From Fistulifera solaris (Eukaryota): 64,000 nucleotides of DNA. Positions 19,978 through 63,166 of the stretch are shown piece after piece. The notes beneath the pieces are model-generated. The model worked only from the letters and a program-made list of their open reading frames with translations, searched no databases and was not told the origin of the DNA. Both the position numbers and the translations under genes were made by a program. Every line of letters begins with the position of its first letter. Position 1 is the stretch's first letter. The DNA lies in NCBI GenBank assembly GCA_030295235.1, contig AP026149.1, forward strand, positions 1 through 64,000, in the 5' to 3' direction.

Positions 19978-20080
19978 GATTAACAGTCGCAACTATTCTC
20001 TTGTAAGAGCTTTTCTGTCTATCAGATCGCTCTCTGTTGTCTTCTCTCCTTGAACTCGGTACCTCCTTTGATTACCGCGT

Positions 20081-23000: not shown

Positions 23001-24721
23001 ACGGTTATGAGATTCCGCGAAACTTTCTCCATGCTATTTTGTTAGACGAACGGAACGGAAACACGAAGTGGATGGACGCAACTGCTCTAGAATCGGATTC
23101 GCTCCATGAATACTCCACATTCCGTGACTGTGGACATAAAGATAAAGTCCGCCCTCCCGAAGGTTACAAGAAGATTCGTGTTCATTTCGTTTACGATGTG
23201 AAGCATGACGGTCGCCACAAAGCAAGACTTGTTGCCGATGGACATTTGACAGATATTCCGTTAGATAATGTTTATGCTGGTGTGGTTACTATCAAAGGAG
23301 TTCGGATTGTTGTTTTTGTCGCCGAACTGAACGAACAGGAACTTTATGCAACTGATGTTGGGAACGCATATCTCGAGGCCAAAACACGTGAGAAAGTTTA
23401 CATCGCCGGCCGGTCCTGAGTTTGGAGCGTTGAAGGATCATATCCTTGTTATCGTCAAGGCATTATATGGTTTGCGTTCGAGTAACTATCGATGGGCTGA
23501 ACGACTTGCCGATGTACTACGTGAGTTGGGATTCTTTCCGTCAAGTCGGAACCCGATGTTTGGATGCGTCGCTGCGACGACCTGTACGAATACATTGCTG
23601 TGTATGTGGATGACCTGCTTATCGCCTCTAAACAGCCAATGTTGATTGTTGAGGCATTGAAACATACGTCACGGTTTCAAGCTGAAGGGAACAGGTCCGA
23701 TATCGTTTCATCTTGGTATGAATTTTGTCAGAGATTCGACAAACACTCTTAGCTATTCTCCCGACAAAGTATCTTGAGCGAATGTTCGTCAACTACGAAC
23801 AGGTCTTTGGTCAGAAACCTCGGAATTACCAGTCGCCTTTGGAACCAAAACGATCATCCTGAGCTAGATACTTCAGAGTTCCTTGATGATGAGAAAACGA
23901 AGACTTATCAATCGCTTATTGGTGCTTTGCAGTGGCTTGTCACAATTGGACGGATTGATATTTTTACTGCCGTCATGTCGATGTCTTCTTTCCGTTCTGA
24001 GCCTCGGTTCGGTCATATGGACCGTGTCAAACGCATCTACGGTTACCTGTATAAGTTCCGTCACTCCGCTATTCGCGTTGACGTCTCGGAACCTGATTAC
24101 AGCACGTTACCAACTGTCGTACATGATTGGGATTATTCTGTTTACGCTGGAGCCGAAGAGATGATCCCACACGATGTTCCAGAGCCATTGGGAAAACCTG
24201 TATTGACGACCACGTATGTCGATGCCAACCTATATCATGATATGCTAACGGGCAAGTCGGTTACAGGAATTCTGCACATGATCAACAATACCCCATATGA
24301 ATGGTACTCAAAGAAGCAAGCTACAGTGGAAACCGCTACTTATGGAAGTGAATTTAGTGCGGCACGTACTGCGGTTGAACAGATCACAGATTTGCGTTTA
24401 ACGTTACGCTACTTGGGTATCCCTGTTCGGAAGACGAGCTATCTATTCGGTGACAACAAGTCTGTTGTCGACAGCTCGGTGCTTCCTGGCTCTAAGCTTC
24501 ACAAGCGCCACACGATGCTATCGTATCATCGCGTGCGACGTGAAGCTATAGCTTCTGGTATCATTGAGTTTCACTATATTCCAGGAGAGCTGAATGCTGC
24601 TGATCTGCTTAGCAAGCATTGGTCTTATGCGAAGACGTGGAAACTCATCCTTCGTCCTTTGTTGTTCCTTGTCGGTGGTAAACCTATTGACGAAGAAGGG
24701 AATGATAAAGAAGAAGCTTGA
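20081..24721 (+). CDS. Copia gag-pol polyprotein, copy 1 (protease and N-terminal/core integrase missing; frameshifted)
   Basis: ORF fragments 20141-24721 carry gag, IN C-terminal part, chromo-like, RT and RNaseH motifs. Confidence 0.85.
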
Positions 24722-24824
24722 CAATTACTGTTGTCAATGGTTTGGTATGATGTGTTGCGAGCACATCATTTGCATGTTTACATTGGAATCAATTGTGTGT
24801 GTTGCCCTTCGGAAAAATGGGGAG

Positions 24825-25242
24825 TAACAATAGTTTGGATCACTCACGACTGGATTTTTGGTCGTGGTCATTGTGTTTTTCCTCAAGACAACGCTGTGAC
24901 ACAATTTACATATCTATCACGTTTTGCAGATTTGATTCGGGAGCAATCGCAGTTTTACGCGAGTAGAATAACAAACGTTTCTAATCATAATTTTGATCTG
25001 TCTTGTTGTTGTTGTTACTCGTCTCCCGTCGATAACCATCTCTTGTGTTTCTCTCCCTTCGTGCTGTGGAGAAACTCAAGGTAGACCGATTGAAGCACTG
25101 CTCCCTTCTGGAGGTCACCGGTGCTGCGAAAGCGTAGGGTCGCTCCTACTTTATCGCTCGCTCGATTGTCAACTGTGTCTCGTCTCGTTCAGAGAGCGGT
25201 ACCAATAGCAGGAAAGGTGCAAACCGTTTCTAGCTATTGTTA
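24825..25242 (+). repeat. LTR 2 (shared central LTR)
   Basis: Preceded by the PPT and followed by the same leader as LTR 1. Confidence 0.95.
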
Positions 25243-25346
25243 GATTAACAGTCGCAACTATTCTCTTGTAAGAGCTTTTCTGTCTATCAGATCGCTCTCT
25301 GTTGTCTTCTCTCCTTGAACTCGGTACCTCCTTTGATTACCGCGTC

Positions 25347-28300
25347 ATGGCTAAATCCAAGGTTGAGAAGAAGCGACCTCCTCCGATCCCGATCCTGATA
25401 AGAACGTGGATAACGACGTAGAACACAAACGAATCTGATGTCAGCGATAAGAATAGAGATGATGATGAAAAGAGCACCGAGTATCAGATGAAAAAGGACC
25501 ACGTCGTCGAAGAGGAAATCACTAAGCTCGAATTCACACCTTTCGAGCACCTCATGTTCAACGTGTATGGGAAAGTAACCAGAGAATCCACTATCTACAA
25601 GGCACTAGTTGCTAATGGGATGGATACATGCATGCATTTCAAATACGACAACGAACCACAATATATCGACAATCTTTCGTTCGTCGATCAGAACAGCATT
25701 CGTATTCAACCACTGAATGGAGCTATCATCTCACTTATCAAGTTCTACAAGTTCATACGATCGTTGAATACTCGAAGCTACCGTAGTGAAGAAAGTTTCT
25801 ATTCGGTTACATTCGATATGTGGGAAGAACACTACAGTCAGCAGCCTCCTGTCGATGTTCCGATTGTTACATCTCATCCTGGTTTTGCTCCCCAATCACC
25901 ACCAGGTTCCCCAAGTAAATCTATTCAGTTTCCACACGGTCATTACTCCCCTTCCAAAGTGCAGCTCTTCATGAAAGCAAAACGGAATGAAGCGGCTTTC
26001 ATGGTCCTGAAACATCAAAATCAGTGGCTCGACTGGTATGATTCGACACGCCGACATGCCGACAATCAAGACTGCTCCAAGTTTTGGATCCGGATTACGT
26101 ACCTATGACTGAAGAGGATGAGGAGTTATTTAAATTGCAGAAGAAATACATGCTCGCTGTCTTCGACACTACGCTCAAAACGGCCAAGAGTCGACAAATT
26201 CTCAATGCACATATTGAGGACAAGGATGCACAAGCAGTTTTTCGTGAAGTCTTGACTTACTATACCGACTCCACAAACTCCTCTCTCACAGCCCAGGATT
26301 TGCTTTCAAAACTTATGCGTGCTCGGATGCTTACCGATGGGAAGGGGATGTCGTATGAATTCTATCTGCTCCGTTATCAAGACGAACTTCGACGTTACGA
26401 CTCCTTGGTTCCGATGAATGAGCGTTTGTCTAACGCCATGAAGAATTCGCTCACTCAGAATCTTATCAAGGGTATTCCGTGTTTGATGAACGTCCGTAGT
26501 AGTGCCGGCATCATGAAAATCGGCACAGGTTCTGATTTAAGCTTCGAGAAATACATTGAAGCTCTTATGACGGCCGCTATCGAACACGATGACCAATTCC
26601 GTGGTTCCAGCAAAGGTGGTAAACTCAACGTGTACTCGCATGACATCTTTGGTGACCCAATCAAGGAATTCGGTTACGGTGAATTGTCCGATGATGAGGC
26701 TACGTATGGAGCATATCTTGCAAGTGGCCAAACGGGCTATTTTCCGAAGCTCACTCGAGAGCAATGGTCAAAATTGTCTCCTGAGGACCGCACCGTATGG
26801 GATAAACTGTCTGATGCCGGCAAGTCTATCATTATGCATCGCGTCAATTCTGCAACAAAGCAACCGCCCGGCAAAGCGTGAGCGAAAAGTATCCAGGGAC
26901 CATCCGTCAAGCGAACATGAATGAGGCCTCACTCGGAGACATCACGCTCAGCCAGATGCTTTCAGCGCTTGCCCACGCATCGCAACGACTTCGTATTGCG
27001 ACGATTACAACAACGAAGAGACGTATGATGTCGAAGTGAACCAAGCAAAGACCAACGTCACTCACAACGAAAAGCATCCAACACATCCCGCATCACTGCA
27101 CAATACTCTCGAAAAGAAACTTGGACAAGGCACGAAAGCAAACAGCTGGCAAAGCGAAGGCGGTTATCAGCATCAGAACTATGCTGAACGGAAGATTCAG
27201 GATGTCAAACGAATTTGTGATATTGTTATGGACAGGTCGGGAGCACCAGATGATTTGTGGTTTGAGTGTTTGTCGCATGTCGCCGATATCCTTAACCATA
27301 CGTACAATCGTGCACTCAAAGACGTCCCATTGCGTGTTTTGAATGGCGACACACCCGATATAAGCCCGCTCATTCGCTTCCGATTTTACGAGAAAGTTTA
27401 TTATCAGCGTCGATGCACATTCTTTTCCGTCTCAATCACGCGAAGATGTCGGTTATTTTGTGGGAGTATCGAAAAACGTCGGTAACGCCATGACGTTTAA
27501 GATCTTGACTCTTGGCACGCTGTCGTATTATTCATCGCTCTGCTGTGCTCGCTGACACGACCATGGATCCTAATCGACGCGTTGATCCTCTACCTCCTCC
27601 TCAGCCCATCGTCACGATTGATGGGGAGATGGAACCCTCCTTCTCGTCAACTTGAGTTGGTCTCTCGTCGCGAATTGGATGGGGAGCATGGTTCAAGTCG
27701 TGCCGATGTTCCGATATTCCATCCTGACGAGCTCATTGGCCGTACATTCCTTTACCACGATCCAGAAAATCCGGAAGGGCTCAAGCATCGGGCCAAAATC
27801 GTCGGAATTGCGGGTGATATTGCCGAGGCGGTTGCTGCGTTTGAGCAGAATCGTAACCGCATTCAATATCGGTGTTCGATCAATGAGGGACAGTTTGAGG
27901 AACTGCTCACTTATGGGGAGGTAATGGATTATATCAACCGGGATATTGCCAACCCTACGGTCTGGAAGTTCCGCAAGATCGTTGATCACCAGGGTCCACT
28001 CACGGTAAAGGACAAGGAATATGCTGGGTCTCCGTATAATGTCAAAGTAGCTTGGGAGAATGGGGAGGTGACGTGGATACCATTAGATCAGTTTGCCAAA
28101 GAGGCACCGGTAGAGTGTGCGATTTACGCCAAAGCCAATGACCTACTGCATGCCAATGGATGGCGCCGATTCCGTGCAATGGCCAAGAAGAAAGAGAAAG
28201 TTTTTGAGCGTCTTGTAAAACAGGCCAAGCTTCGTTCTTATAATACGGCCCCACGCTACAAGTACGGTTATGAGATTCAGCGAAACTTTCTCCATGCTAT

Positions 28301-29977
28301 TTTGTTAGACGAACGGAACGGAAACACGAAGTGGATGGACGCAACTGCTCTAGAATCGGATTCGCTCCATGAATACTCCACATTCCGTGACTGTGGACAT
28401 AAAGATAAAGTCCGCCCTCCGAAGGTTACAAGAAGATTCGTGTTCATTTCGCTACGATGTGAAGCATGACGGTCGCCACAAAGCAAGACTTGTTGCCGAT
28501 GGACATTTGACAGATATTCCGTTAGATAATGTTTATGCTGGTGTGGTTACTATCAAAGGAGTTCGGATTGTTGTTTTTGTCACCGAACTGAACGAACAGG
28601 AACTTTATGCAACTGATGTTGGGAACGCATATCTCGAGGCCAAAACACGTGAGAAAGTTTACATCGTCGCCGGTCCTGAGTTTGGAGCGTTGAAGGATCA
28701 TATCCTTGTTATCGTCAAGGCATTATATGGTTTGCGTTCGAGTAACTATCGATGGGCTGAACGACTTGCCGATGTACTCACGTGAGTTGGGATTCTTTCC
28801 GTCAAGTCGGAACCCGATGTTTGGATGCGCTGCGGCGACCTGTACGAATACATTGCTGTGTATGTGGATGACCTGCTTATCGTCTCTAAACAGCCAATGT
28901 TGATTGTTGAGGCATTGAAACATAAATGCACGGTTTCAAGCTGAAGGGAACAGGTCCGATATCGTTTCATCTTGGTATGAATTTTGTCAGAGATTCGACA
29001 AACACTCTTAGCTATTCTCCCGACAAAGTATCTTGAGCGAATGTTCGTCAACTACGAACAGGTCTTTGGTCAGAAACCTCGGAATTACCAGTCGCCTTTG
29101 GAACCAAAACGATCATCCTGAGCTAGATACTTCAGAGTTCCTTGATGATGAGAAAACGAAGACTTATCAATCGCTTATTGGTGCTTTGCAGTGGCTTGTC
29201 ACAATTGGACGGATTGATATTTTTACTGCCGTCATGTCGATGTCTTCTTTCCGTTCTGAGCCTCGGTTCGGTCATATGGACCGTGTCAAACGCATCTACG
29301 GTTACCTGTATAAGTTCCGTCACTCCGCTATTCGGCGTTGACGTCTCGGAACCTGATTACAGCACGTTACCAACTGTCGCACATGATTGGGATTATTCTG
29401 TTTACGCTGGAGCCGAAGAGATGATCCCACACGATGTTCCAGAGCCATTGGGAAAACCTGTATTGACGACTACGTATGTCGATGCCAACCTATATCATGA
29501 TATGCTAACGGGCAAGTCGGTTACAGGAATTCTGCACATGATCAACAATACCCCATATGAATGGTACTCAAAGAAGCAAGCTACAGTGGAAACCGCTACT
29601 TATGGAAGTGAATTTAGTGCGGCACGTACTGCGGTTGAACAGATCACAGATTTGCGTTTAACGTTACGCTACTTGGGTATCCCTGTTCGGAAGACGAGCT
29701 ATCTATTCGGTGACAACAAGTCTGTTGTCGACAGCTCGGTGCTTCCTGGCTCTAAGCTTCACAAGCGCCACACGATGCTATCGTATCATCGCGACGTGAA
29801 GCTATAGCTTCTGGTATCATTGAGTTTCACTATATTCCAGGAGAGCTGAATGCTGCTGATCTGCTTAGCAAGCATTGGTCTTATGCGAAGACGTGGAAAC
29901 TCATCCTTCGTCCTTTGTTGTTCCTTGTCGGTGGTAAACCTATTGACGAAGAAGGGAATGATAAAGAAGAAGCTTGA
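25347..29977 (+). CDS. Copia gag-pol polyprotein, copy 2 (same internal deletion; frameshifted)
   Basis: Near-identical to copy 1, with indels at different positions. Confidence 0.85.
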
Positions 29978-30080
29978 CAATTACTGTTGTCAATGGTTTG
30001 GTATGATGTGTTGCGAGCACATCATTTGCATGTTTACATTGGAATCAATTGTGTGTGTTGCCCTTCGGAAAAATGGGGAG

Positions 30081-30498
30081 TAACAATAGTTTGGATCACT
30101 CACGACTGGATTTTTGGTCGTGGTCATTGTGTTTTTCCTCAAGACAACGCTGTGACACAATTTACATATCTATCACGTTTTGCAGATTTGATTCGGGAGC
30201 AATCGCAGTTTTACGCAGTAGAATAACAAACGTTTCTAATCATAATTTTGATCTGTCTTGTTGTTGTTGTTACTCGTCTCCCGTCGATAACCATCTCTTG
30301 TGTTTCTCTCCCTTCGTGCTGTGGAGAAACTCAAGGTAGACCGATTGAAGCACTGCTCCCTTCTGGAGGTCACCGGTGCTGCGAAAGCGTAGGGTCGCCT
30401 CCTACTTTATCGCTCGCTCGATTGTCAACTGTGTCTCGCCTCGTTCAGAGAGCGGTACCAATAGCAGGAAAGGTGCAAACCGTTTCTAGCTATTGTTA
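30081..30498 (+). repeat. LTR 3 of tandem Copia array
   Basis: Preceded by the PPT and followed by TSD CGGAT. Confidence 0.95.
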
Positions 30499-31275: not shown

Positions 31276-31959
31276 TATGCTAGGACTTGGGACGTTTTGT
31301 TTGCTTTGTTGGTACCGACCGTTCCATCGTAGTTTGGGGTCATTTTGTTTAGAAACCATGTCATTGAGATCAAACTGATCGTTTATGTGGATTGATAAGC
31401 TTGTGTTATGGATTTCTCCGTACTTTTGGGCATTCCGTCGCTATAACGAGACTCGAAAAAATGAATGGAGCCTGGCTAAGTCTTAGTTATCCGTGACTCG
31501 GACTTCTGCCGTGGTCCGTCCGTTTTCGTTGTACTCCTAGCATCGTAAGTGCCGCTTCAAATACAATCTACACATTAGTTGAGACTACATCCTGTTTTTC
31601 CTAAGGAACAGCTGTAGAATCTGGTATTCAACTTCGTTCCGAATCGGAGTCACACAAGGAACGTCACAATCGATTGAGTATACGACAGGAAGTGGTATCT
31701 CCCATCTGTTTCTCCTTTTCCCCTGCGGATGTTTCTTGACCGAATCATTTCTTCGCTTTCTGTGGCAGTTCTTCAGTGAAGAAGAGAAGAAACGAGGAAA
31801 ACGTCGTCGTCGTTCGTGCAAGCCGCAAAGCCATTCCTTTCCTGACAGCTGTCACAAAAAACATCGCAACCCATCGGAAGTTAAAGATACTATCCGAGTT
31901 GTATAATAAATTATCACTACATACAAAAAAAAGACAAATATCAATTAAATCAAAGAATC

Positions 31960-33379
31960 ATGACCATGGACGCATCGCATCTTCCAGGACTCGCCGGAAA
32001 GCACGTCAATGTCGCTATGATGACCAGCGGTGGCCTTGCCCCTTGCCTTTCGTCCAGCATCGCGCATCTTTTGATGGGCTGGATTCAAGCTCTCAAAGAA
32101 GGAAAAATCTCCGGATTGACTTTCCGCATGTACATTGGAGGGTACAAGGGTTTGCTGATCGGTGATTCCTTTGTCGTCCCTGAATCGGAATGGGAAATGG
32201 TCGATCAGCTCAATCAGTTGGGCGGTTCACCGATTGGAAATTCTCGTGTCAAGGTAAGAGCACGGAGAAGCTATTACCTTTTCTATATTAAAGAAGGCAA
32301 TTTCTCACCTTGCATTCTCCCGCAGTTGACCAACATTACGGACTGCATCAATCGTGGTTTTGTTCAGGAGGGAGACACCCCGTTGGAAGTCGCTTCGCAG
32401 ACTTTGTTGAAAGACCAAATTCACGTCCTTCATACCATCGGTGGTGATGATACCAATACCCAAGCCGCGCAGCTGTCGGCTTATTTGTTGGAAAAACATC
32501 AAGGCAAGGTGATTGTCGTCGGAATGCCCAAAAGTAAGTGAATCGAAATCAACCGGGTCGTTTTTTATGGCTATGACATGCATCTCATATGTTACGTCCT
32601 TCCCTCTTGCTTTCATCACAGCCATTGACAATGATGTATACCCTATTAAGCAAACATTTGGTGCACATACGGCGGCCAGCCAAGGTGCCAGGTTCTTCGC
32701 CAACGTCGTCAATGAATCGACGGCCAATCCACGTATGCTCATTTTGCACGAAGTCATGGGTCGTGATTCGGGTTATCTCACCGCGGCCACCGCGCAAAGC
32801 TACCGTGAAACATTAGCGTCGCAGCCTATGCATGGTAGTAGCTTTCCTTACTGTGCCCAAAAGGCTCGTGACATTCACGCTATCTGGATTCCGGAAGTCG
32901 CTTTGGATTTACATGCCGAAGGAGAGCGTTTGAAGAAAATCATGGATACGGTGGGATGCGTCAACGTTTTTTTTGGTGAAGGCACAGGTGTGCAAGAAAT
33001 TGTGGCTGAAATGGTCGCTCGAGGAGAAGAAGTGCCTCGTGATGCGTTTGGGCATGTTGTGTTGGCCAAGATTAAGCCTGCCGACTATTTCTCGAAACAC
33101 ATTGCCGAAATGGTCGGAGCTGAAAAGACTTTGGTCCAACGCAGTGGATACTTTGCGCGAAGCGCCGCGGCCGACACTTTCGATCAGGATTTGATCCAAA
33201 AGTGTGCATACGCCGGTGTCGCCAGTGCCATTGCAGGAGTTTCGGGATGTATGGGACAAGACGAAGAAAGAGGGGACGAAATTCGTGCCATTGAATTTGA
33301 ACGTATCAAAGGACACAAGCCCTTTGATGTTTTGCAGCCGTGGTTCCAACAGATGCTCAAAGAGATTGGACAAATGTAA
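31960..33379 (+). CDS. PFP: Pyrophosphate-dependent phosphofructokinase; introns 32254-32325 and 32534-32621
   Basis: TSGGLAPCL, GGSPIGNSR, IGGDDTN (Asp indicates the PPi-type), spliced MPKTIDND, EVMGRDSG, RDAFGH, SGYFARS. Confidence 0.93.
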
Positions 33380-39945: not shown

Positions 39946-42900
39946 TGTTGGCTTCTCACAAAACTATCGCCGAAAAACAAGAAAAGACTTGAATTGCAAT
40001 AGAAAGGAGAATTAGTAAAAAGATTACGTAAAAGAATATTTTGCTTGAGGACCGCAGTTGGCGAGTTGGTCATTTTGATTGTTGAATGTGTATAGGAGTA
40101 ATATGTAGATTGGATATGTAAGTGCCGATGATTGCAACGGAAGAAGATTCATTAGGATTCAGGGGCGGCAATCACGGACACGGGAATGAATGAATCGTAG
40201 GTCGGTCAACACTCTCCCCTAATTCAGAGCGAAGGAATGGATTACAAAGAAGACCGACAGAGTAAAAAGGTTAGGGTGGGTGGGTGCGGACTTGAATGAC
40301 ATGGCCCATGAGACGATGACAGTGACGTGAATGGAGAACCCAACCAAGAGGTTTGGTAAGATCATCAGAAGGATTGATGATACCGGGGAGAAAGAGGAGA
40401 ACAATGTCGCCTTGTTCTTTCCATTGTTGGATGGCAAAGAATTGGATCGCAATATGACGAGATCGATCGGTAGGAATCTTGGCATTCACCATGTTGATGG
40501 CTGACTTGTTATCACAGTACAATGGGGTAGGAGCAGTTTGCGGGAGGCCAAGTTCATGAAGAATTGCACGAAGATAGCGAGCGTGTTTGGCTGCAGTAAC
40601 CGCGGCATAGAATTCAGCTTCTGTAGAACTTGTAGCTGTAAGAGGCTGCGTTTTGCAACGATATGAGACACATCCGGCCGGCCATCATGAATGCATAACC
40701 GGTGGTAGAGCTGACGGTTACGAAGATCGTTGGCATGGGCAGCATCAATGAAACCAGTTAACTGACAACCGGAAGCAAGGTCAGGGAATGTCGGTAGGGA
40801 GGCATCGATTGAGACTGACGGAATGAGACACGGAGGTAAAGAAGCAACAGTGGAAATTCAATGAACTGCTGCTGCATAGGAATGAAAGATGGACTTTGAC
40901 TTGGAGTCGTCCGGGACTTTGATTGAGTATAGGCCAGCTTCAAACGAATCATCGGCAAGCTCGTCATCATCGCTATCAGTCGCTTCATCAACGTCAGTGA
41001 GGTCGATTGCACTGACGGCTGTAGGTTGCATCAGTTTGCGAAACAGTTTGACAAGTTTGTTCGCAGGAGCAGATGAATTGCATTTATCTTTGGCGTCGGT
41101 GCGAGCCGGGCTGTCGGGGGCCATGAGATATTTATCCAGAGTTTCAACTAACTGATCACCTTTGTACTTGTGGCGAAGACTGACAATGCAACGTTCGTCT
41201 CTAGTCACACGATTAAGGTAGGAATTGTACTTGCAGTTGTTGATGAAGATGTCAAGTTCAGCTTCATCGTCCAAGGAAGAGTTGATGTTGGAGATGTACA
41301 CACGCAGCTGGAGATAGTCATTGAAGAGCTTGTAGAATTCCAGCATCAAGCGATCGCGTTGCTTTGGGTAAGACGTGATGAGCGTGGACGACTCGCGGGT
41401 AGAATGCAGGATGCGAAGGGAATAAGATTGCTTTCAATGCAACATAGCCATCGTTTTCAGCAGCATGAACAATGTAATGGAGACGACTGTTAGGGGGGAA
41501 ACATGTTGCGTTTCATCAGAAGGCGTTGAAGTGGGCCAGCCATGTTTGCAACCATCATCGTCATGGTGCTGGGAAGGTCGTCGTTTGCATTGTCACCGAT
41601 TGTGAAAACGCATTTTCCACCATGATCAGGGCGGAAACAATAGATCGGATGACAGTAAAAGCCGTCGTCATGACAGGCTTGCATAAACTTTTGATACCAG
41701 TTGCGGACGCCAGCATGGGTATCATCATCGCAAGAAACCATGGCCTTGAAAAGCTTTTCTCATTTGGGACTGGAACTTTTACAAACACTGTCCCATCGGC
41801 AAGAACTAGTTTGTCAAGGCCTTCTATATGATACATGTATCCTGAACTATACGGAGTCTTGACAACAGAACCAAGAATGAGACCACCTTTCTGCTTGTTC
41901 TGATAGCGGGAGCGTACATCAGCAGGATTGTTCAAGTAAAGCATAGACATTGGAATGGGACTGGGATTGATACCAGCTGCGGCGGTCGGACTTTCAACGG
42001 CAGCGGTTGGACGGTAGGCAGCTGCAAAACGCCATCGCTAGATCGTTTGCAGAAGGAGGAGCAGGAATAGCACCAGCAACAGCTGCAGCAATATCAGCGG
42101 CAGTGAGAACATGCGGTGCAACAGGAGGGGCGACAGCGGTAGTCGAGAACTTATTCCAATCGAGATAAGTAATCAGTCCAGTCGTTTAGGTCAATGAAGA
42201 AGTGACTGGTTCCGACCTGAATCTCAACAGCAGGCTTTTGGTTCACAATTGCATTGACAACAGCAGCGGTAAGGTTCGTTTTGTTCAAGCGATGTTTGAT
42301 TTTCTTAACATCGGTGAACATTGGCGCTGCAGTCAAGAGAGGCATGATAATTGTCGTGTCCGAAGTCTGGGAGGCACGAGGAGTAATCAATTCATCACAA
42401 ATAATGCGACGAATCATGGCGAGAAGTTCAGTATCGCCGAGCAACTCAACAGGAGACTCAGGATCAACAAACAAGCGATGGGAATCCGGGATTGGTTCAC
42501 CATAGTTGATGTTCAAATGAACATGCAATTTTTCATGGTGACCATGAGGAAGGAACTTGACCACGAACTTCGGAAGTTCAGGGACAACGTTGGAGGCTCG
42601 CGGCAGCAGAGGCGAGGGTAGAAGCAATTGACATTCCAAACAAAGGAGAGGAAGAGGGCAAAGGCAGGCGAGGTGCGCAAGGAAAAAGGAAACTGGCACA
42701 GTGAAGATAAAACTTCGAATACGCTTGTAATTTACAATTCAGCGCACTAACCGTAGTAGTCTGCGATCCTTGTAAATCAGGAAGAGTATTCTGGGCTCTA
42801 TAACCTGTTGGCTTCTCACAAAACTATCGCGAAAAACAAGAAAAGACTTGAATTGCAATAGAAAGGAGAATTAGTAAAAAGATTACGGTAAAAGAATATT

Positions 42901-43071
42901 TTGCTTGAGGACTGCAGTTGGCGAGTTGGTCATTTTGATTGTTGAATGTGTATAGGAGTAATATGTAGATTGGATATGTAAGTGCCGATGATTGCAACGG
43001 AAGAAGATTCATTAGGATTCAGGGGCGGCAATCACGGACACGGGAATGAATGAATCGTAGGTCGGTCAACA
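39946..43071 (-). mobile_element. Non-autonomous Copia LTR element (gag-like ORF plus RNaseH tail only), TSD GTATG
   Basis: 266-bp LTRs TG...CA at 39946-40211 and 42806-43071. GTATG on both sides. PBS GGTTATAGAGCCCAG; PPT AGGGGAGAG. RNaseH motifs SSTEAEF, YCDNKSAI, NPSDDLTKPL. No PR, IN or RT motifs seen. Confidence 0.93.
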
Positions 43072-44907: not shown

Positions 44908-46793
44908 ATGCCTCCCAAGTCGAATGACATTGAAGCCGGTCAGGCAATCAAGCGATTGCCGTCAAACGCCGAGCTTGTTCCTCATGCAGGAAAAATCACT
45001 ATGGATGAGCCCGCTTACTTCGGAAAGGGCATCATCAAGGACTTAAAGACTACAGTCGGAACGCACTGGAGACAGGTAAGTCATCATGAAAGCACTAACC
45101 CAGGAAAAGCGCCTCAAAGAGTATCACTAACTCGTCCTTTCGCTTTTTCCGCTTGCAGGAAATGACGAACTTCAACCAGAAGACGGTTGCCGTTTCCATG
45201 CTCATGTTCATTACCGTCATCGCCCCTACCTTGGCGTTCGGTGCCTCCTACAGTACTGCGACAGAGAGTCACATTGGAGCTATTGAGACTATTCTGGCTA
45301 CGGCGTGGATTGGATGCGCCTACTCCTTCATCGGTGGTATGCCTCTATGTATCATTGGTTCGACTGGTCCTGTGCTGGCATTTACCACCGTTCTTTACGA
45401 CATGTCAAAGAATATGGACATTCCATTCTACACCTTCTACGCCTGGGTCAGTGTGTGGATGCTTATCTACGCCTTTCTCTGCAGCTTCTTTGATTTGACC
45501 CGGTTCGTCCGTCTCGCGACTCGCTTTACGGATGACATTTTTGCCTTTTTGATTGTCAGCATCTTCGTCATCAAAGCCATTGGCGACCCGTTCGGTGGAG
45601 TTGACGGTATTCTGTTTCCCTTCGACCCGAATCACAAGACCCATCAGAACCAAGACGCTGACTACGACTTCCTACAGGTCGCCCTTTTAGGTGTGATCTT
45701 GGGTTTCGGTACCACCTGGTTGATCTTCTACCTTCGCAGCTTTAAGAACTCATCTTTCTTCTGCAGTGACACCATGCGCAGCTCTATCCACGACTTTTCC
45801 GTCACTTTCTCAGTTCTTATCTGGACGATTGTCAGCAAAGTCATCTTCAAGGACGTCGAAGTGGCAAGTTTGAATGTCCCTGATCAGTTCGAGCCTACCT
45901 ACCAGTGCTGTGATGACGCTTGCACCATGTTCTTCCCAAGGAGTGCCCGGATCAAGCGGAGCGCGCCGGTGTCCGCTCGTGGTTCGCCGACATGGCCGAT
46001 ACTAATGGAAAGGGATGGGTTCCGATTGCTGCTGCCGGGCCCGCTGTTCTTGCCTTTTTCCTTCTTTACCTCGACAACGGTATCACTTGGCACTTGATCA
46101 TGCACAAGAGCAACAACGTTCATCACGGAGAAGCTTACAACTACGATTTGTTGCTTTCGGGTTGCTTTAACTTTGTGAATGGACTATTGGGACTTCCATG
46201 GCTCGTGGCTACGACAGTTCCATGCATTGTGCACTTGAACTCGCTCGCCGAGAAAGACAAGGATGGCAACATCCTTCACGTTCAAGAGACGCGTCTCACC
46301 ATGCTTTTCTCGCACATGTGTGTCGGGTTCTCGATTTTGGCACTTGATCTTCTCAAATTATTGCCCTTACCGGTCCTCAATGGTGTCTTTTTTGTTCATG
46401 GGCGTGTCCGCGTTGCCTGGCATTCAGTTCTGGAACCGCTTCTTGCTCTTCTTCCAACAGCCCAGCAAGTATCCCGAGACCCCTTATACGAAATATATGG
46501 ACAAGGGTCGAATCCATCTGTTCACCATCATCGAACTGTTCTTTTTTGCCATGGTCTTTGTTGTGCAAAACATCAAGGCCGTAGCGGTTGTTTTTCCCAT
46601 GATGACCTTCTTCTGCATTCCTGCTCGTACCCACTTGCTTCCCCGCATCTTTGAGGGATGGGAGCTTGTTCTGTTGGATGGAGACATCTTTGAGATTCAG
46701 GAGTGGATTGACAGGAAGACGGATTCTGTTGCCGAATACGAAGCTTCCTTGCGCGGCGACTTGTCTGAATACGAAGATGATGCCACGCAATAG
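44908..46793 (+). CDS. SLC4: SLC4-family bicarbonate transporter; intron 45076-45158, two frameshifts
   Basis: GIIKDL, IAPTLAFG, GGMPLCIIGSTGPV, TRFTDDIFAFLI, AYNYDL, GLPWLVATTV, VQETRLT, FLFMGV. Confidence 0.93.
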
Positions 46794-51137: not shown

Positions 51138-52735
51138 CTATATTTTTACCGCCACACCTGAGTCCTCTCCATGATTCATATCAAAACCCAACCAATCCAT
51201 GACCTGCTCTAAAATGACTTGCCGTGCTCGTTGTATATGAATGTCATCGGTACCCTTCGGCGGATGCGTCCAATAGTGATGACTGGCACCCGGTACAGAA
51301 TGAAAGGGCTGATGATTCGGCGGTGGATGTTCCGGACGAAACGCTAAAGTCGTCCAAGGATCTTCCGTCCCCGTCACACTGAGCACTCTCGTAGCAAACA
51401 TGTCGTAGCCCCCATACCGATTGTTGGTAGCGTGGACGTTGTTAGCTACATTGGTAATATTGAATGCAACACGACAAATTTCCAAGTCTTGTTCGAGAGG
51501 GTGCCATCCTCTTCCATACGGACAATTCGTATCGGGTAAACACGTTTGATAGTACCCAACTTCGGTACATGTTTGCCATAACCACGACCGCCATTCTTCA
51601 CGGGGCTGTGACAATTGATGCAATGTTTCATTCCAATCCAGTACGAGACAATCCATTGCACTAATTGATGATAGACGCATTGTACGCGACAACCACGCCA
51701 AAGCCGACCACTCCGCACCTTGCACCGCACGCGACACCAAGGCATCGCATACTTTGGCAATGTTGCACAACTCGTCAGTACAGGCCGGATCATTTCTTTG
51801 GACGTCCCATTGGATGACCCCGTCTCCTAAGAAGAGTTGGATATTTTTGTTTCCATCAAACTATCGACATCGCAGAGTTGAAATTCCGTCGCGAGCAAGC
51901 CATGATAGTCGGGTTGCCTTACCAAATGGTTCAATTGATCATGACCCTGTACAAAGACGTCATAGCAGGCAGACGAACCACCCAATTGTTCATTTTGCAA
52001 ATTCGCTCCCACTGCATCATTGTACGAAATCATATTGAGTGTGGCTTGTACTGGAGCGGAGGAACTCACGGCAGCCGAAACAAGGTGAGGAAACTTCAAA
52101 CGCAACAAAGCTGATAAATATCCTGGATAACTGGCGCCGAACGTGACGACTGTAGCATTCTGCGACTGTTGCTGCAAAAAGTACGCTGCGTCATGCAAGG
52201 CTTGATCACTGGACAAGTAACGCAACTTGTCGTTGGTGTAATAATCTTCCGAAAAGGGCTGCGATGTTCCGTAAAAGCGATGTTCGAGAGCATACAAATG
52301 AATGTTGACATTCCATATTTCGTGCAAATATTGGGCTGTATACAACATATCTCCGGAACAATGGACACTGTCGATTAAGACAGAAGCATCGAGCGGAGGT
52401 CCTTCGCCTCCGACGCACAAGAACATGTATTCAGCAGCTTGTTGCCGTCTGGACTCCTTCATCGAATCATCATGATATTTTTGAACAAATTTATTAGAAT
52501 AAAAGTAGCGCTGTTGCCATGTACGAGTATCTTGATGCTGGAAATGATCTAAATATTGCGTGAAGTACAATTCTTGCACGTCCGGCGACGATGTTGTATG
52601 AAGAGGCTTCGGCTTATCGACGGAAGAGGACCGCGACGAAAGCACCTCGACCGCGCGAAATCGAGGAATCGCTAGTGTTGATTCCAAACCGACTAGTAAA
52701 GCAAGTAACACGACAGCATACTGATGCAGTTGCAT
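51138..52735 (-). CDS. Serine carboxypeptidase family S28 (frameshift near 51830)
   Basis: Signal peptide; QYLDHF, QRYF, GGEG, LEHRFYG, FGASYPG, SSAPV, QTCTEVGYYQT, DPW, GASHH. Confidence 0.92.
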
Positions 52736-53094
52736 TGTTTTACTTGACTTCGTCCAAGAGATACGTTATTAATGATAAAGTAATGAACGGAGTGAAAATG
52801 GATTGAGAGTTGCGAAAAGAAGCCCAGCGTCGCAGCGTAGTGTAGGCCTGAGTCACGAATAAATTGATTTCGTTTTTTATGGCCCCATCTCCACATCACA
52901 AAAACAATCAAATTTTGAGCTCTGTCAAAAATAACACGAGTCCGCTAGAGTCGTATTTTATCTTTCAAGTTGTGGCATCGGGAGGCGCTCAAATATCTCT
53001 TTTACTACTGCATAGAATGTTTTCTCGTCGCCAAAGGTGAACTCATTGCCTATTTGATCTTCAAAAATAGTTTTGTAATCAAGATCACTTTGAT

Positions 53095-55570: not shown

Positions 55571-55954
55571 CATTAACGCTCTTTATCTTGACGCCTTGGG
55601 TGCCGCACATTTTCTACTTTAATCTTGGTTTCTTTCTTCGATCGATAGCAAAATAATGAATGAATTGCTGATAAAAAGAAAGTAAATGATGATATTATTA
55701 TGAACCTCTTGACAGCCATCAAAAGCTGGTTCTCCATTTTTACAGAAGGACCGATGACCGCAGTGAGTCAGGCCCGTTCCTAACCAAAATATCGTACCCA
55801 ATATCGTACACTTCATCGCACTCATTTCCGGGTCATCCCTTTTTTTTGTGCGATGGATTTCCATCGTACCCTCGCGTGCGATGGGGTACGATGCGATCCA
55901 TCGTATCCAAACTCGAACCATAAACTGGGAACCTTTTGAATAACAACGAATTGA

Positions 55955-56322
55955 TGTTGGCTTTTGGTATTCCAAAAACGCTCAGTCACGCACGACAATC
56001 AATCGTACGCGGGACAGTGCGCAGCAATCAACTTTGCACTCCGTTACTAAGCCTCGAAAACAAAATGATAAAACACAAAGTCAATCAAACTCTGTTTAAA
56101 TCGGGATTGTTTCGAGAGAATGAGCTCTCTCGAAACCGTGCACAACAACGCTCGCCCAAGTTACCGGTTTACTACTTTCATCGGCGATCTTTTTCGCCAC
56201 GGCATCGGCGTGTTCTCTACTTACGATCTCGCCGCATGCCTCCGCTAAGTAATCATCCTCCTGAATCACATCCGCGTTTTCCCTCACTGTCCGAAACGTG
56301 TTCGGTTCGATTATTACCAACA
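55955..56322 (-). repeat. 3' LTR of full-length Copia
   Basis: Near-identical to 61823-62188; purine-rich GAGGAGCG immediately upstream on the sense strand. Confidence 0.95.
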
Positions 56323-59300
56323 CGCTCCTCGGCCGGATTCGATTCGGGCAAGTCGAGGGAGCTAATGTGCTTGTATCCCATGATCACGTCAGCAGCTTGT
56401 AAAAAAGGTTTCCCTGTAGCGGCTTGGTGAAGAAATCAGCTAACATGCTCAACGTCTGACAGTGGCGAATCTCAATATCTTCCGTTTTGATCCTGTCCTT
56501 GATAAAGAAATAACGGATGTTGATGTGTCGCGACTTTGGTCCCGCCGACGTGCGTCCATTCTTCTCCAATTTAATCGCACTCTCGTTGTCCTGCTCCAAC
56601 ACATTTTCAACTATCTCATATCCTTGGGACTCGAGGAACATCTTTAACCACAACGTGTTGGGTAGATAGTCGCTCGCACCAACCAATTCAGCTTCGGTCG
56701 AACTCTTCGTGTTTAACTTCTGTTTCGTCGACTTACAGATCAATCCTCCAGTTCCGAAAGAAATGACCCCACCTGTGTGACTCTTCATGTCTGGATGTAC
56801 TGCATATGACGCATCTACCCAAGTGCGCGCAGTTTTCCAAGATCGTCGGCTCCTAAGGTAAACGCAATGTCTAAGGTTCCATTCAAATACTCCAGGACCC
56901 TCTGTAGCTTTTCGTAATCTTCCTTGGTCGACTTGGACACTCTGGTACAAAGGAAACACACTGGTAACAAAATATCCATTCGGGCCCTGGTGGCCACGTA
57001 TAGTAGTTTTGCCGCAATACTGTGAAAACGTTCGGCATCTTCCTTTTCCAAAAACGGGAGTTCTTCGTCCACGTCAAACAACTGTTTCTTTGCCGGGAGT
57101 AGCCGCGAGTGCGTGTCTTGTCTAGACCAAACTCTTCAATCGCCTCAAGAAGGTACTGCTTCATTTTGATTGTCGCTGTGCCATCACCATTGTAATTAAT
57201 GTTCATGCCAAGGAAGTTATGCTCGTTTCCGCGGGTGACACTCATTTTCCCAAATTTGGACTCAATCTTCTCGATCACCTCCGTCACAACATCCGGATCC
57301 TGGTGAGAGATCTTTGTATCGTCTACATACCACACGATGGTGCACTGCGATCCTTTTATCATGCAATTGGCCACGCACTGGTCGTACGGGTTCAACTCAA
57401 AACCCATGGACTCCAATTCCTCTGAAAACACTTTGTACCACAGAAGGGCACTCTTTACACATCCGTACAGGGCCTTGGCCAATCTCACGTACAGGGTCGG
57501 GACTCCGTTCTCTACTATGGTATACTGCTTGTACATCTCGTCCATTTCGCAAATGATTTCGACGGATTTCCCAGTAAATTTCATTAGAACAAAATCGTCC
57601 ATCTTTGCTTTCAAGTAAGCACCAGCAACGTCCGCCGTGCCAACATGGCGCCTCTCGAAAGCATCAATCATAATAGAAATGAGTAGCGCATCGGACGAAA
57701 CCGTGGGGGACGCCGTTTCAGTTTTGTCGTATAATTCCCTTTGGGGTCTACCATCTGCAACCGTTCTTCCCTTCAATGTTCCATCACGCTTTTCTTTTAG
57801 TAGGTTGATGGCTCTTAATGCTGATCGACGCTGCTCCGGCGTTAGTTCCCCTGCATGCATCGGGTAAAAAACATTGAGGTTGTGTAGTTGACGGAACTCG
57901 TTCATTAGCGCTTCTTCGGCTCGTTTTCCATGTTTTCGATACCCTTTCTTTTCTGACATCTGTGTGAACACTAACCCAAAAATCAGGCGCTGGACTACAT
58001 CGCTGTCAGGGGACTGCGGTAAGGCTTCTACTGCTTGCTGTAGTAAAGTCACCGGTGGAAGATACGACTGGTTGCTGTGTGGATTGTCCATGGCATCCGC
58101 AAAACGGGGATTCTGTCCGCTGCCGTTCACGTAGATGGTAGCCGTGGGTCGCTCCTTGAATTTCCGCTCCTTGGTCTTCCGCTCCTTGATTTTCCGCTCC
58201 TTCGTCTTCATCTGCAGCCGGGATTAACGCCTCATCTGGGAGTACGAGGTCATTAGGTTGGTCGTGTGGAAGATGGTCAAGCACCTCGGGCGGATTCTCA
58301 GCATCCTCGGGCTCGGGGGTCTGGGAAGTGGACGAAGAGTGGGTTGTCATTGTCGTCAGGCTCGTCTGCTTCGAAAGGTGGGTTGTTATTTTCGTCAGGC
58401 TCGTCTGCTTCATCAGCCAGAATCGCTCCTTGATGGTCGTCAGTGGGGGCAGACAGATCATCATCTGTAGGCTGAAGCAGGGAAAAAAGTTCGTTGTCGT
58501 CAATGGGAAAGAAATTGGCAGGGACGTCTTCATCGTCGGGGGTCAAGGCCGGGTGTGAAGTCGGGATCGTAGATGTCGTCGTCAACAGGGGGCGTCGGGG
58601 CGCCATTCAACGGCTAAACCACTGGATTGAATGAAAGGCATGCCATCGGCGGCGGCGAGGGCGTCGACACGAGCAATTGCGGTATCGGTAATGTGGAATT
58701 CCTGCCAGGACCGACGAACAACGCGAGCGCCGGTGGCAAGGGAAAGGAAGTAGTAGTCACCATTTGCATTGCCGGTGGGACCCATGGCAATGGCGCCCAA
58801 AGTGCGTGCTTTCACAGTGTTGGAAGGATCATTGTCTTCAAAGATCTGCACATAGGCACCAAAATCAAGCTTGAACTTGTTGTAGTCCGGCAAACCGCGT
58901 CCGGTGACAATCGTGGACGGGCTCAGTGTCTGGGAGACCCCATTCTTCCGCGGGAACATGTTGAGGCAATCCACAGTGTTGGCCACCAAGTGTTTGAGCA
59001 TGAGCTTGGGGAGACGGCGATAAGGCATGGCGTGGACTGCGGAACGGAGACGTACTTTGACTGTTTCAATTGAGCGCTCAACTTCGGGCACATGACTGTC
59101 TGGAGCGACTACATCGAGGTGAACAGGGGCGATATGTGGTCGGATACACTCAAACTCGGCGTCACAGTGGAAATCGCGGACGGTAAAACCTCTGGCCTCA
59201 TAGAGTCGTGCGACGTTCTTGCTCTCACGGACCATGACGGCTTTGCTGCGGTCGGCAACAGATTTGGCGGTGCGAAAACCAATGTTGCGAGAAATGGTGT

Positions 59301-61822
59301 GATAGAAGGGGATGCCCTCGACATAGAAGAAATCGGCGCAAATGGTAACATCGCGGTGATGTTGAAGGATGGGGGGCGGAATCGATACCGCTTTGAAAGT
59401 GGGTACGGGCGGCGCTGCTGTAGATCGTCGCGTGGTGCCTTTCACATGGGCAATGTCAGGGCCATAGATGAAGAGTGCGCGTTTGGCGTGCTCCGAAGTA
59501 ACAGGACAGTTCAGGACAAAATTCGAACGCAGGATGTGCTGGAACTCTTGCTCAGATGGGGCGTCCAATGCGGCCATAGAGCACACGAGCAGCATCCGCT
59601 TCTCCAACTTGTCTCTGGTTGAAAAACTGCTTCTGCTGCGCTACGGTTTGGAGAAGAGAGTAGGCACTAACAGATTCGCTAGAGTTAGGTTGGAAAATGT
59701 ACAAACCCATCGGGTGCTGAACAAACTTCATGATGGACCCATCGAGGCGGTGCACTAGTATCGCTGGCTCAGCTGTGGTGTCCATGGTGACACGACGAAC
59801 CGCGACTAACTTCAGCAAGGGACAGAATATTAGCAATTGACTCGGGATTGTACCATACTGGACCAAGGTTGGGGAAATCACCAATGAAAGAGGAGTTCTG
59901 GTGTCCACCGTTCGTTAGGGGCGTGCAGCATGTGCTCGCTAGGTCGAATGTTGGACAGCATAGCGGCGTTGCGAAAAACAGAAACAGTGGACTGGGAGTC
60001 CAAGAGGATCCAGTTGGGATCAATGGTAGCCGATGCGGTGTGGGCAAGGCTGAAACCCAGTTGGACGAGAGTGGTTCCGTTGGCAGCGGTTCGGGCAACA
60101 GTTTGCATAGTGCCCGGGCTTGTTGCATTCGTTGCAGGTGATATTGGGGTGTTCCTTTCCGTCGGTCCCCTTCACGGGATCGCCTTTCTGCACGAAGGTC
60201 ATCGCGCTGGCCTCAGGGCGTGGGTGCGGGAGCGGAAGCGGAATTGTTTTGTCCTCGCGTGTTGTTGTTGGTGTTCCGCGCTGCAGCCGGAATCTTGTAG
60301 TTTGCCAGCAGGTTGTACGCCCGACACAGGATCCGTGGGGTACTGGTCGTTGTCGAGCAAATAGGAGTTGGCCAAATCATTCTTTAATGCACCAAAACGT
60401 GCCTGGTCGGCGTTCCGGATGATGACGATGCCCAAAGTACGGTCTCGGGCCGCGTTGTAGCGTTGGATTGCGTCTTCCGTCGCGCGGGTAACGGGATCAA
60501 GCGTGACTGATTCTTCATCGCTCTCACTGTCGCTATCGCTGTCACTTCCTGTCAAGTTGCTATCTGAGTCGCTGTCGGATTTGGTTCCTTTCTCACCATC
60601 CACATCAGCGTCCGGGCCAGCAGCAGGAGGAGGAGAAGGAGCAGGAAGCTGCACCACAACAGGAGGGGGCGGGGTGTACCATCGGCACTTCATTGATTGT
60701 GCCTCCATAGGCCTCAATCGAGTCCGCCCAGTTCAGAAGCTCATCCACGTAGTCATCGACGGAGTCGCCTGGTCTCTGTTTACAGTTCAGAAAACCGGCG
60801 TGCGCTTCGACCAGGGAAAGGATTGGATTCTGGGTGCGGTCAAAACGGAGACTGATGGCCTTTATCTCTCGTAGTAGCCATGCACAGTCAGATTTTTCGT
60901 AAGCCTTCTTGTACTTAGGATGCGCTCGCAGCTTCGACAACATGGCCACGGTGCAGTTTCCAACGGTCGTGAGTGAAGATTTTCAAACGGTTTCCGCGAA
61001 TAGAGTCGCGACGGGCGTCATATCGCTTCTTGGCTTGCTTGTAGTTGAAGATTTTCGTCTCTCCGGCGTCCTTTCCAGGGTCTACGGGCTTTTTTTAACT
61101 TCGGGTTCACGATCTCGTCACCGAAGAGACACGCGACGTCTTCAGCGTGGGTGAGGGTTGCGTTGGAGTGGTGCTGGAGAGCCTCCAGAGCTTTCTTAAA
61201 ACGGTACTTTGAGCCTTTCTCGCCGTGGCACGCAAACATGTAGCCGTCCATGCCCGGGGTCTTTCCTACTTCTTTGGGGCGTCGCCGTCGGACGCACTTA
61301 CTCCCGACTTCGCTGTTGCCGCCCCCCACGATTTCCCCCCGGTTTCTGCGGTTCCTTCCACTGCGGCTCGTGCCAGAGCCATCCCCGCTCGTATTCTGTG
61401 CTTTCGGGTTTGCTGGCGCGGGAGAACTCATCCTTACGCGATGCGGCGTACGTTGCGCGGCGCTTCGCCACGTGCTGATTCCGGTCTCGGTGCGGGAGAG
61501 TGATGCGTCCTTCGCCCTGTCACAACGGCAAAAGTGGATTGTCGGTTAACCTCCGCGGTGTCCAAAGGCCAGTCCAGTATTGTGGTCGCCCGCACTCCGT
61601 TGAGGATTGACAGCGGTCGCCGACGGCAAGGGCCCGTTGCTCCTGATCCGGTCTCGCTCGGTCTCTCTCGTCGACTTCGCTCTCTTTGTAGCTCGGCGCT
61701 GGAGTTCCGCTTGACCAATCCGAAGTTCTTGAGTTTTCGTGAGAATGTCCCCGATGCGGTCGTCGTCCATTCGGGTTGGACGGGGTGAGCGTTGAGAAGA
61801 ATATTTTTTCTCTCGGAAACAA

Positions 61823-62188
61823 TGTTGGCTTTTGGTATTCCAAAAACGCTCAGTCACGCGACGACAATCAATCGTCGCGGGACAGTGCGCAGCAATCAAC
61901 TTTGCACTCCGTTACTAAGCCTCGAAAACAAAATGATAAAACACAAAGTCAATCAAACTCTGTTTAAATCGGGATTGTTTGAGAGAATGAGCTCTCTGAA
62001 ACCGTGCACAACAACGCTCGCCCAAGTTACCGGTTTACTACTTTCATCGGCGATCTTTTTTCGCCACGGCATCGGCGTGTTCTCTACTTACGATCTCGCC
62101 GCATGCCTCCGCTAAGTAATCATCCTCCTGAATCACATCCGCGTTTCCCTCACTGTCCGAAACGTGTTCGGTTCGATTATTACCAACA
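61823..62188 (-). repeat. 5' LTR of full-length Copia
   Basis: Near-identical to 55955-56322. Confidence 0.95.
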
Positions 62189-63166
62189 ATTGACATTCCA
62201 ATAAAATTTCTTTGACGCACACACTTTTCAATAATTTGGAAGAAATCATCCATCATTATTGTTAGGACACAGCTATCCCTTTTTGGTACGGAACATGAAT
62301 AAAAACAATGTTATTGAGCCAAGGAAACGCTTCCATTGCAGCAACAACCTATTTTCGAAGCGTTTCAACGAAGCTGGTCAAAATGTTGCTTTCTGCCACT
62401 GGCGATGATGGCATGGCTGTTATGTTGGATTCACACGATTTTGTGATTTGGCCAGCGACTTCGTCGAAGAGAAAGGTAAGTCATCAACGAAGATTATCAA
62501 CAAGAACTTTAGATTGTTAATAACATAACTGTACTATAATCATTGTTTTATTTACTTATCACTATTGTTGTTGTTCAATTCCGATAGCGACCCATCCGAC
62601 AAACATCCGGCTCAAAGGAAAGCAAACGGCAAAACAATTGACCTTTAAGGGCATCCATCGACAGCCTCTGACAAAGCAGTCAACCCATCAGTCCGAAAGC
62701 CTATAAAATGGCGAGCAAATGCATCAAGGAACTGAATCACAGTTGCACGACCGGTCAAACCAATCGCACAACGACGCCATGAAGCGATGGTAACTCTTAC
62801 CGCGTCGGATGTCGCGATCAAATAGCCAAAGAACAAAGCAAATGCAAGGGAAGGAAATACAATCAAACGATAGCATTGAAAGATTTATAAAAACAATTGC
62901 AAAACAAACATTATCCACAACGACCCCTGGGTGACAATTATGAGACGACCAAATGATGGAGCCGACGGAGAATCATGACGAAGATTGTTTTTGAATTTTA
63001 TGTTGTATACGTTCCGTTGTCCGCAATTGCGTAGGATAAGTAAGACGAAATAATAAATAATGAAGTTATGGAGGAATGATTGTTTTGCGGATCGGAATGT
63101 CAAATTGGCGCCAATTAATCAGTGGGGTTTGAATGCCGGATGGTACGATGGAAGCGATTCGGTTAG

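Follow-up and report, generated by a model that had tools for sequence, protein, structure and literature searches.

The choice of primer is a basic trait of retroelements that carry a long terminal repeat (LTR). To our knowledge, self-priming has been demonstrated experimentally only in the Tf1 group, whereas in Copia elements it has been predicted for a single plant lineage. In the scheme described for Tf1 and Tf2, a self-primer within R anneals with the primer-binding site (PBS), the reverse transcriptase (RT) releases it from the mRNA by cleavage and elongates it, and the resulting short cDNA is transferred to the 3' end (PMC5341516). A self-priming design has been predicted by Neumann et al. 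(2019) in plants for the Copia lineage TAR, to which Houba and Osr-1 belong; their criterion was complementarity between an LTR sequence and a stretch of 10 bp or more whose first base lies 0-5 bp past the 5' LTR (PMC6317226). Here we describe E1, a complete LTR retrotransposon on the minus strand (55955-62188) of a 64,000-nucleotide (nt) stretch of the diatom Fistulifera solaris (contig AP026149.1, positions 1 to 64,000), referred to below as the window. Tf1-like self-priming is the best explanation for the E1 lineage and a likely one, with a transcription start and a cleavage step that we infer, because the relatives of E1 keep a covarying pairing between an LTR arm and the PBS, and the other LTR elements of the window lack it.

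Similar to E1, Tf1 and Tf2 of S. pombe and the Tf1/sushi group lack a tRNA-type PBS, and in Tf1/Tf2 the beginning of R likewise contains a complement of the site that immediately follows the 5' LTR. The Tf1/sushi elements are Ty3/gypsy chromoviruses with the gypsy domain order, whereas E1 has an RVT_2 RT and an integrase located before the RT, which ruled out membership of E1 in that clade. The duplex spans 14-16 nt in the E1 lineage, compared to 11 nt in Tf1, and cleavage and start site are shown by experiment for Tf1 and predicted for the E1 lineage. Plant TAR, compared here by the description of its priming only, shares with E1 the Copia superfamily and predicted self-priming, but its hosts are land plants. 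A preliminary description of this DNA had put forward Tf1-like self-priming in a Copia element as a mechanism of which it knew no description. The mechanism is supported by the pairing in 43 of 43 related loci with both sites, the RVT_2 RT and the integrase 5' of the RT, whereas the suggested novelty does not stand: self-priming is not new to Copia, because Neumann et al. had predicted it for TAR (PMC6317226). What is new here is limited to the host group and the lineage, plus a hairpin. This hairpin lies at the U3/R border in part of the E1 lineage, and we know of no Tf1 equivalent.

The features of E1 that bear on priming are as follows.

61823-62188, minus strand: 5' LTR of E1, 366 nt, TGTTGG...CCAACA, a direct repeat with 55955-56322
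55955-56322, minus strand: 3' LTR of E1, 368 nt, TGTTGG...CCAACA
61808-61823, minus strand: PBS of E1, the LTR-terminal A plus TTGTTTCCGAGAGAA, complementary to the LTR arm save one extra C
61974-61987, minus strand: self-primer candidate of the 5' LTR (putative start of R), TTCTCTC-AAACAAT, one G fewer than in the 3' LTR copy
61988-61990, minus strand: TCA of the initiator-like TCATT in the 5' LTR, which opens the arm; putative transcription start
56106-56120, minus strand: arm in the 3' LTR, TTCTCTCGAAACAAT, which, apart from one C of the PBS, is its exact reverse complement
56121-56123, minus strand: TCA of the initiator-like TCATT in the 3' LTR, read in the sequence

On the sense strand, the 5' LTR is followed at once by TTGTTTCCGAGAGAA (61822-61808), which carries no TGG. 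The LTR stretch opening at TCATT is TCA-TTCTCTCGAAACAA in the 3' LTR (56123-56107) and TCA-TTCTCTC-AAACAA in the 5' LTR (61990-61975), from which the G is absent. Read as its reverse complement, the 3' LTR stretch gives TTGTTTCGAGAGAA, and the site after the LTR has one C more than this. The preliminary description had reported this PBS without TGG, the matching LTR stretch, a complementarity interrupted by one or two bulges where the two LTRs differ by an indel, and an initiator-like TCATT at which the complementary stretch begins. All four hold on the minus strand: the coordinates are confirmed, the PBS shows one extra C against the 3' LTR and two irregularities against the 5' LTR, and TCATT opens the stretch in both LTR copies. 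In RNAduplex, the E1 PBS paired with the 3' LTR copy at -17.2 kcal/mol, compared to -10.5 +/- 2.0 for shuffled PBS sequences, and 1 of 300 shuffles reached that value. From E1 alone, the evidence for pairing is suggestive.

Two further LTR elements in the window served as controls.

19561-30498, plus strand: E2, a second Copia-type element (RVT_2), arranged as a tandem LTR-internal-LTR-internal-LTR
19561-19977, 24825-25242 and 30081-30498, plus strand: LTRs of E2, with the unusual termini TAACA...TGTTA; target duplication CGGAT
39946-43071: E3, a short LTR element with 266-nt LTRs, TGTTGG...TCAACA; target duplication GTATG

Neither has a PBS-LTR complement above shuffles, which reached the observed value in 162-164 of 300 cases for E2 and in 149 and 261 of 300 for E3, which was examined in both orientations. 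The site after the LTR of E2 (GATTAACAGTCGC...) also lacks TGG. No Pfam domain was found in the three open reading frame (ORF) pieces of E3, and its LTR is followed by GGTTATAGAGCCCAG if the minus strand is taken as sense, a site that may resemble the half-tRNA type of Copia PBS.

The relatives make the case for pairing decisive. A homologue search for the RT, run with residues 100-446 of the query, yielded 653 proteins at E <= 0.001 among 2520 scored candidates, and a scan of viral contigs gave no relatives. In the representative library, 14,156 relatives of the RT were counted. Among the 120 relatives listed, 4 have a source name that gives a taxon, in each case the diatom Fragilaria crotonensis. 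Relatives of full length are polyproteins of ~1,600-1,800 residues with the RT near residues 1,000-1,340. A scan of metagenome contigs with the RT alignment gave 80 loci (numbered L001 onwards), each of which was searched for inverted repeats. Both the LTR arm and the LTR/internal junction are present in 43 of the 80, and all 43 show the pairing with at most one mismatch in 15: 38 pair perfectly over 15/15, L016 and L017 have perfect 14-nt arms, and L010, L024 and L059 have one mismatch. The layout is uniform, in that the 14-16 nt starting at the last LTR base (...AAC|A TT...) are the reverse complement of an LTR-internal stretch (...tCA|TT.........AAT|cc) situated 100-195 nt upstream of the PBS. 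The preliminary description had proposed complementarity between R and PBS, with compensatory change in relatives, as a test of its idea, and the 43 paired loci with their 23 different arm sequences bear it out.

No locus among the 80 was found to have both sites and lack the pairing. In another 36 of the 80, one of the two sites is missing, and L037 is a decayed copy of one family. Five loci (L011, L020, L062, L063 and L068) begin inside U5, with the PBS present and the arm outside the contig. Another five have a 3' LTR with its arm, of which L027, L029, L033 and L050 continue past it into flanking DNA; for L079 no LTR end was identified. The rest of the 36 fall short in length, as the PBS is found 3,278-4,022 nt ahead of the RT match or, in collapsed or tandem assemblies, 1,869-2,032 nt past it. 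Many of the metagenome contigs, for example L012, L018, L019, L054 (127-nt terminal overlaps) and L072, are circular permutations or tandems of LTR plus interior, in which the PBS follows a 3' LTR. They probably reflect assembly collapse of the two LTRs, the alternative being true tandem arrays like E2. In addition, one sub-group (L010, L014, L015, L024, L027, L035, L036 and L066) carries in its RT gene an 11-nt inverted repeat, AGGAAAGCAAT ... ATTGCTTTCCT, with the copies ~383 nt apart, which may reflect RNA structure or a mere coincidence of conserved coding sequence.

The 43 loci contain 23 distinct LTR arms (such as TTATCTCGAAACAAT, CTTCCTAAAAGCAAT, TTCTTTTTGATTAAT, TTAAATCGTTTGAAT and TTCGTCTGCAATTAAT) in 26 arm/PBS combinations. 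In alignment A3, whose 27 rows are E1 and a single representative of each combination, 94.5% of the cells form a standard pair, compared to 67.0 +/- 1.6 in shuffles (0 of 500 reach it), with changes on both sides in 12 of 15 pairs (104 cells). When the partner was slid by 1-3 columns as a control, 41.6-58.1% of the cells were paired. Most of the unpaired cells come from out-of-register rows: L016 and L049, with arms of 14 nt and 16 nt, and E1 with its assembly indels. Run without a hint, RNAalifold returned the primer/PBS helix as the sole consensus structure, and when the RNA was folded from the A of TCA up to the PBS, the minimum free energy (MFE) structure included it in 26 of 26 versions. 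In L053 the last LTR base co-varies too (AAC with GTT). Covariation in the E1 lineage is unusually clean. In an RT tree of 39 rows, comprising E1 and the 38 of the 43 loci with a stop-free RT match of sufficient length, the arms track the phylogeny, and identical or near-identical RTs are found with a compensated single change (L067/L073 versus L069/L070/L072, and L023 versus L042/L051).

For stems between primer and PBS the signal was weak (61.0% paired versus 55.0% shuffled) and came from a region where the alignment is unreliable; we make no case for such stems. The primer arm is followed, 25-30 nt further on, by a conserved motif, AGTTTNATTGAC (A3 columns 56-67; ~61948-61959, minus strand, in E1), which can form a small hairpin with ~80% of cells paired, with weak support overall. 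A second stem-loop with an RTTSAAGGY-like loop, also weakly supported, precedes the PBS.

These data bear on two other readings of the match. The first, that it is due to chance, low complexity or an assembly artefact, could draw on the modest significance of E1 alone and on the indel noise of the assembly; it is refuted by the same architecture on 43 independent metagenome contigs with differing sequences, and we regard it as hardly tenable. The second holds that a tRNA, half-tRNA or tRNA fragment primes E1 and that the LTR match is incidental. There is precedent for it in Copia, where half-tRNA priming is described for the lineages Osser, Bryco and Bianca, and these, together with Drosophila copia, have a PBS without TGG like that of E1 (PMC6317226). 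However, in half-tRNA priming the PBS corresponds to an internal segment of the tRNA and stays the same throughout a lineage, whereas the PBS of the E1 lineage varies together with its own LTR. Its 26 versions, each complementary to its own LTR, set the lineage apart from the half-tRNA-primed Copia elements. TGG at or near the PBS start was found in 0 of the 26, and Rfam gave 0 matches within E1. ARAGORN detected no tRNA in the 64-kb window and made a single tRNA-SeC call across 14 of the 80 loci (those with the contigs judged longest). Priming by a tRNA or a part of one is very improbable.

Under the self-priming explanation, the 5' edge of the helix would mark the start of the RNA. This edge is TCAYT in 22 of 24 rows (TCATT in 18 and TCACT in 4; the others are CCATT and GCATT). 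In A3 the two bases that adjoin the helix on its 5' side, C and A, do not vary, and the preceding T is nearly invariant. TCAYT fits both the initiator-like TCAH+1W proposed for the diatom Phaeodactylum (PMC4686930) and the oomycete initiator YCAYTYY, whose commonest reported form is TCATTCT (PMC3599244). Complementarity never extends 5' beyond this edge, except for the A of TCA in one family. Transcription would accordingly be predicted from sequence to start at TCA(Y)T inside the LTR; if it does, complementarity would be expected to end at TCA, because the plus strand would copy the primer up to the 5' end of the RNA.

Upstream of the arm, the preliminary description had noticed a second PBS-like copy and suggested a hairpin over the putative start. 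Such a hairpin is found in E1, with the following upstream arms.

56126-56136, minus strand: U3-side hairpin arm GTTTCGAGAGA, the PBS-like copy, in the 3' LTR; pairs with 56119-56109
61993-62002, minus strand: 5' LTR counterpart of this hairpin arm, GTTTC-AGAGA, lacking one G

In the MFE fold of the 3' LTR, GTTTCGAGAGA (56136-56126) and TCTCTCGAAAC (56119-56109) form an 11-bp hairpin with the loop GCTCAT, the duplex energy of which has z = -6.3 against shuffles. Among the 24 rows, pairing between the upstream sequence and the primer arm reaches z < -2 in 10, most strongly in E1, L061 (z -5.3), L001, L003 and L013. It is not significant in the other 14, and the hairpin is therefore a feature of only part of the lineage. 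Between E1 and L061, the upstream hairpin arm tracks a C-to-T change of the primer arm. If the RNA starts at TCAYT, the hairpin would be limited to the RNA 3' end, and we speculate that it masks the 3' copy of the primer sequence there.

Taken together with the Tf1/Tf2 scheme, these features suggest the following route for E1 and its relatives. Transcription would begin at the initiator-like TCA(Y)T within the LTR, and the first 14-16 nt of the RNA would fold back onto the site starting at the last base of the 5' LTR, a step for which complementarity and covariation are both observed. By analogy with Tf1/Tf2, the RT/RNase H of the element would then cut the RNA at the 3' edge of the duplex, after ...AAU, and the freed 3'-OH would prime minus-strand strong-stop DNA. 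Plus-strand strong-stop synthesis would copy the RNA primer, and the PBS would be rewritten to match in each cycle. Such rewriting would explain the compensated changes between near-identical RTs. In E1 and the part of the lineage that has it, the U3 hairpin, present only at the RNA 3' end, may speculatively stop the 3' copy from competing for the PBS.

Several points weigh against this route. The assembled PBS of E1 is imperfect, with the one bulge and two irregularities noted above, and its pairing with the 5' LTR copy reaches only -12.9 kcal/mol, which 36 of 300 shuffles match. The coding region of E1 is split into ~10 frame pieces, and this copy may be dead if they are genuine. The hairpin extends upstream of the putative start in several families, and in some its stem takes in the TCA or runs past it; transcripts could begin further upstream, with the primer segment internal. 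Moreover, pairing of the RNA 5' end with the PBS region also occurs in tRNA-primed elements such as Ty1.

The penultimate point leads to a different form of self-priming, in which transcription starts upstream of the hairpin and an internal segment switches between hairpin and PBS before it is cut. The 10 rows with upstream pairing and the stems running into TCA speak for it; against it, complementarity to the PBS ends at TCA in every family, TCAYT matches the published stramenopile initiator motifs, and the hairpin fails to reach significance in the majority of rows. We consider this form unlikely. The pairing in Ty1 points instead to a helix that acts as a structural RNA element, for example in cyclisation of the 5' untranslated region for packaging, in dimerisation or in translation control, with some other primer in use; covariation proves pairing, not priming. 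Yet this reading leaves the lineage without an alternative PBS: none of the 26 versions begins with TGG, and a site after the LTR with so many versions suits no shared cellular primer. In addition, in each of the 43 loci the 3' strand of the helix starts precisely where the LTR ends, which is the position required of a primer, and compensated changes in near-identical elements suit primer copying better than slow selection. A purely structural role thus has a low probability, comparable to that of the internal segment.

As for the imperfect pairing of E1, the assembly itself offers a probable explanation. The two LTRs of E1 differ by 0 substitutions and 6 one-base gaps over 371 alignment columns, and 4 of the 6 gaps lie at or beside CpG and 2 within A runs. 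The irregular motif copies (the PBS and both 5' LTR arms) are all altered at one TCGA. Other repeat pairs in the window also differ chiefly by gaps (30 gaps versus 19 mismatches, and 2 versus 1). The host genes for phosphofructokinase (31885-33376), an HCO3- transporter (45099-46651) and peptidase S28 (51141-52765) are split into overlapping ORFs in differing frames, and Pfam profile coverage continues across the breaks (1-124 then 123-272 for phosphofructokinase, 1-206 then 227-434 for peptidase S28), which suggests single-base assembly indels rather than introns. The window assembly carries indel errors at CpG sites and homopolymers, and because of this signature the bulges in the PBS/arm pairing of E1 are probably not real. 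The 3' LTR arm TTCTCTCGAAACAAT is identical to the arm of the relative L009, which pairs perfectly over 15/15.

The remaining features of E1 define its boundaries and coding content.

62189-62193, minus strand: target-site duplication TCAAT on the 5' side of E1, read in the sequence
55950-55954, minus strand: target-site duplication TCAAT on the 3' side of E1, 5 nt repeated after the 3' LTR
56323-56330, minus strand: putative polypurine tract GAGGAGCG, adjoining the 3' LTR on its 5' side
60089-60139, minus strand: Gag CCHC zinc knuckle, a weak Pfam zf-CCHC match (E 0.022), residues 80-96 of the ORF 60020-60376
58585-59640, minus strand: integrase-fold ORF piece 5' of the RT, 352 residues, AlphaFold2 model with a predicted local distance difference test (pLDDT) score of 82.5
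57111-57794, minus strand: RT of Copia type, Pfam RVT_2, E 9.9e-19, 68.3 bits versus a cut-off of 31.6

The integrase-fold ORF had no match in Pfam and PDB sequence searches, whereas a Foldseek search of the PDB with its model returned retroviral integrases as all of the top matches (E ~1e-7, probability 1.00). In full-length relatives, D564, D621 and E649 are invariant and lie ahead of the RT block 1064-1300. E1 is a Ty1/copia-type LTR retrotransposon that inserted recently; the class follows because the integrase precedes the RT, the RT is of the RVT_2 family and the LTRs are flanked by a 5-bp duplication. The GGAGCG ahead of TGTTGG in the region of the polypurine tract is also seen in relatives of E1. 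In the window (56323-56383) and in relatives, the polyprotein frame continues through the polypurine tract into the 3' LTR, and a conserved C-terminal ...EERV is encoded by GAGGAGCGTGTT, that is, by the polypurine tract plus the LTR start.

Besides the Tf1 group and TAR, two described groups of Copia elements invite comparison. Fungal GalEa elements lack a tRNA-type PBS and have a Conserved Hairpin Site at the PBS position (PMC5445492). This site is a local palindrome for which the authors report having found no complementary LTR sequence (PMC5445492), whereas the partner in the E1 lineage lies in the LTR, 100-195 nt upstream. The CoDi elements of Maumus et al. (2009) are Copia-like diatom elements with divergent Copia RTs (PMC2806351). 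Their likeness to E1 lies in the diatom host range and the divergent Copia RTs. In the main text of that paper, 'PBS' occurs only as a buffer, 'tRNA' is absent and priming is not discussed (PMC2806351). Self-priming in diatom elements was not found described in the literature within search reach, which left out most subscription journals. Elsewhere in the window, a perfect 285-bp inverted repeat (17686-17970 / 18398-18682, with 427 bp between the arms) adjoins a PI3/PI4-kinase-like gene.

In diatom genomes, LTR retrotransposons make up a major component, one that is activated by stress (PMC2806351). For the E1 lineage, the 23 primer sequences matched by their PBS amount to a natural mutagenesis series that makes the mechanism directly testable. 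The series fixes the duplex length at 14-16 nt, its 5' edge at TCAYT and its 3' edge at ...AAT|CC, overlapping the last LTR base, and the helix gives a prediction of the LTR transcription start. Annotation pipelines that validate LTR elements by a tRNA-PBS match will under-call this lineage. A joint reading of all the data, possible but on balance doubtful as a whole, is that a diatom Copia lineage common in aquatic metagenomes lost tRNA priming independently of Tf1/sushi and plant TAR. Its private primer/PBS code, rewritten from the primer in each cycle, would drift fast yet stay perfectly paired, a U3 anti-primer hairpin confined to the RNA 3' end would stop the 3' primer copy from capturing the PBS, and the PBS would be invisible to host defences based on tRNA fragments.

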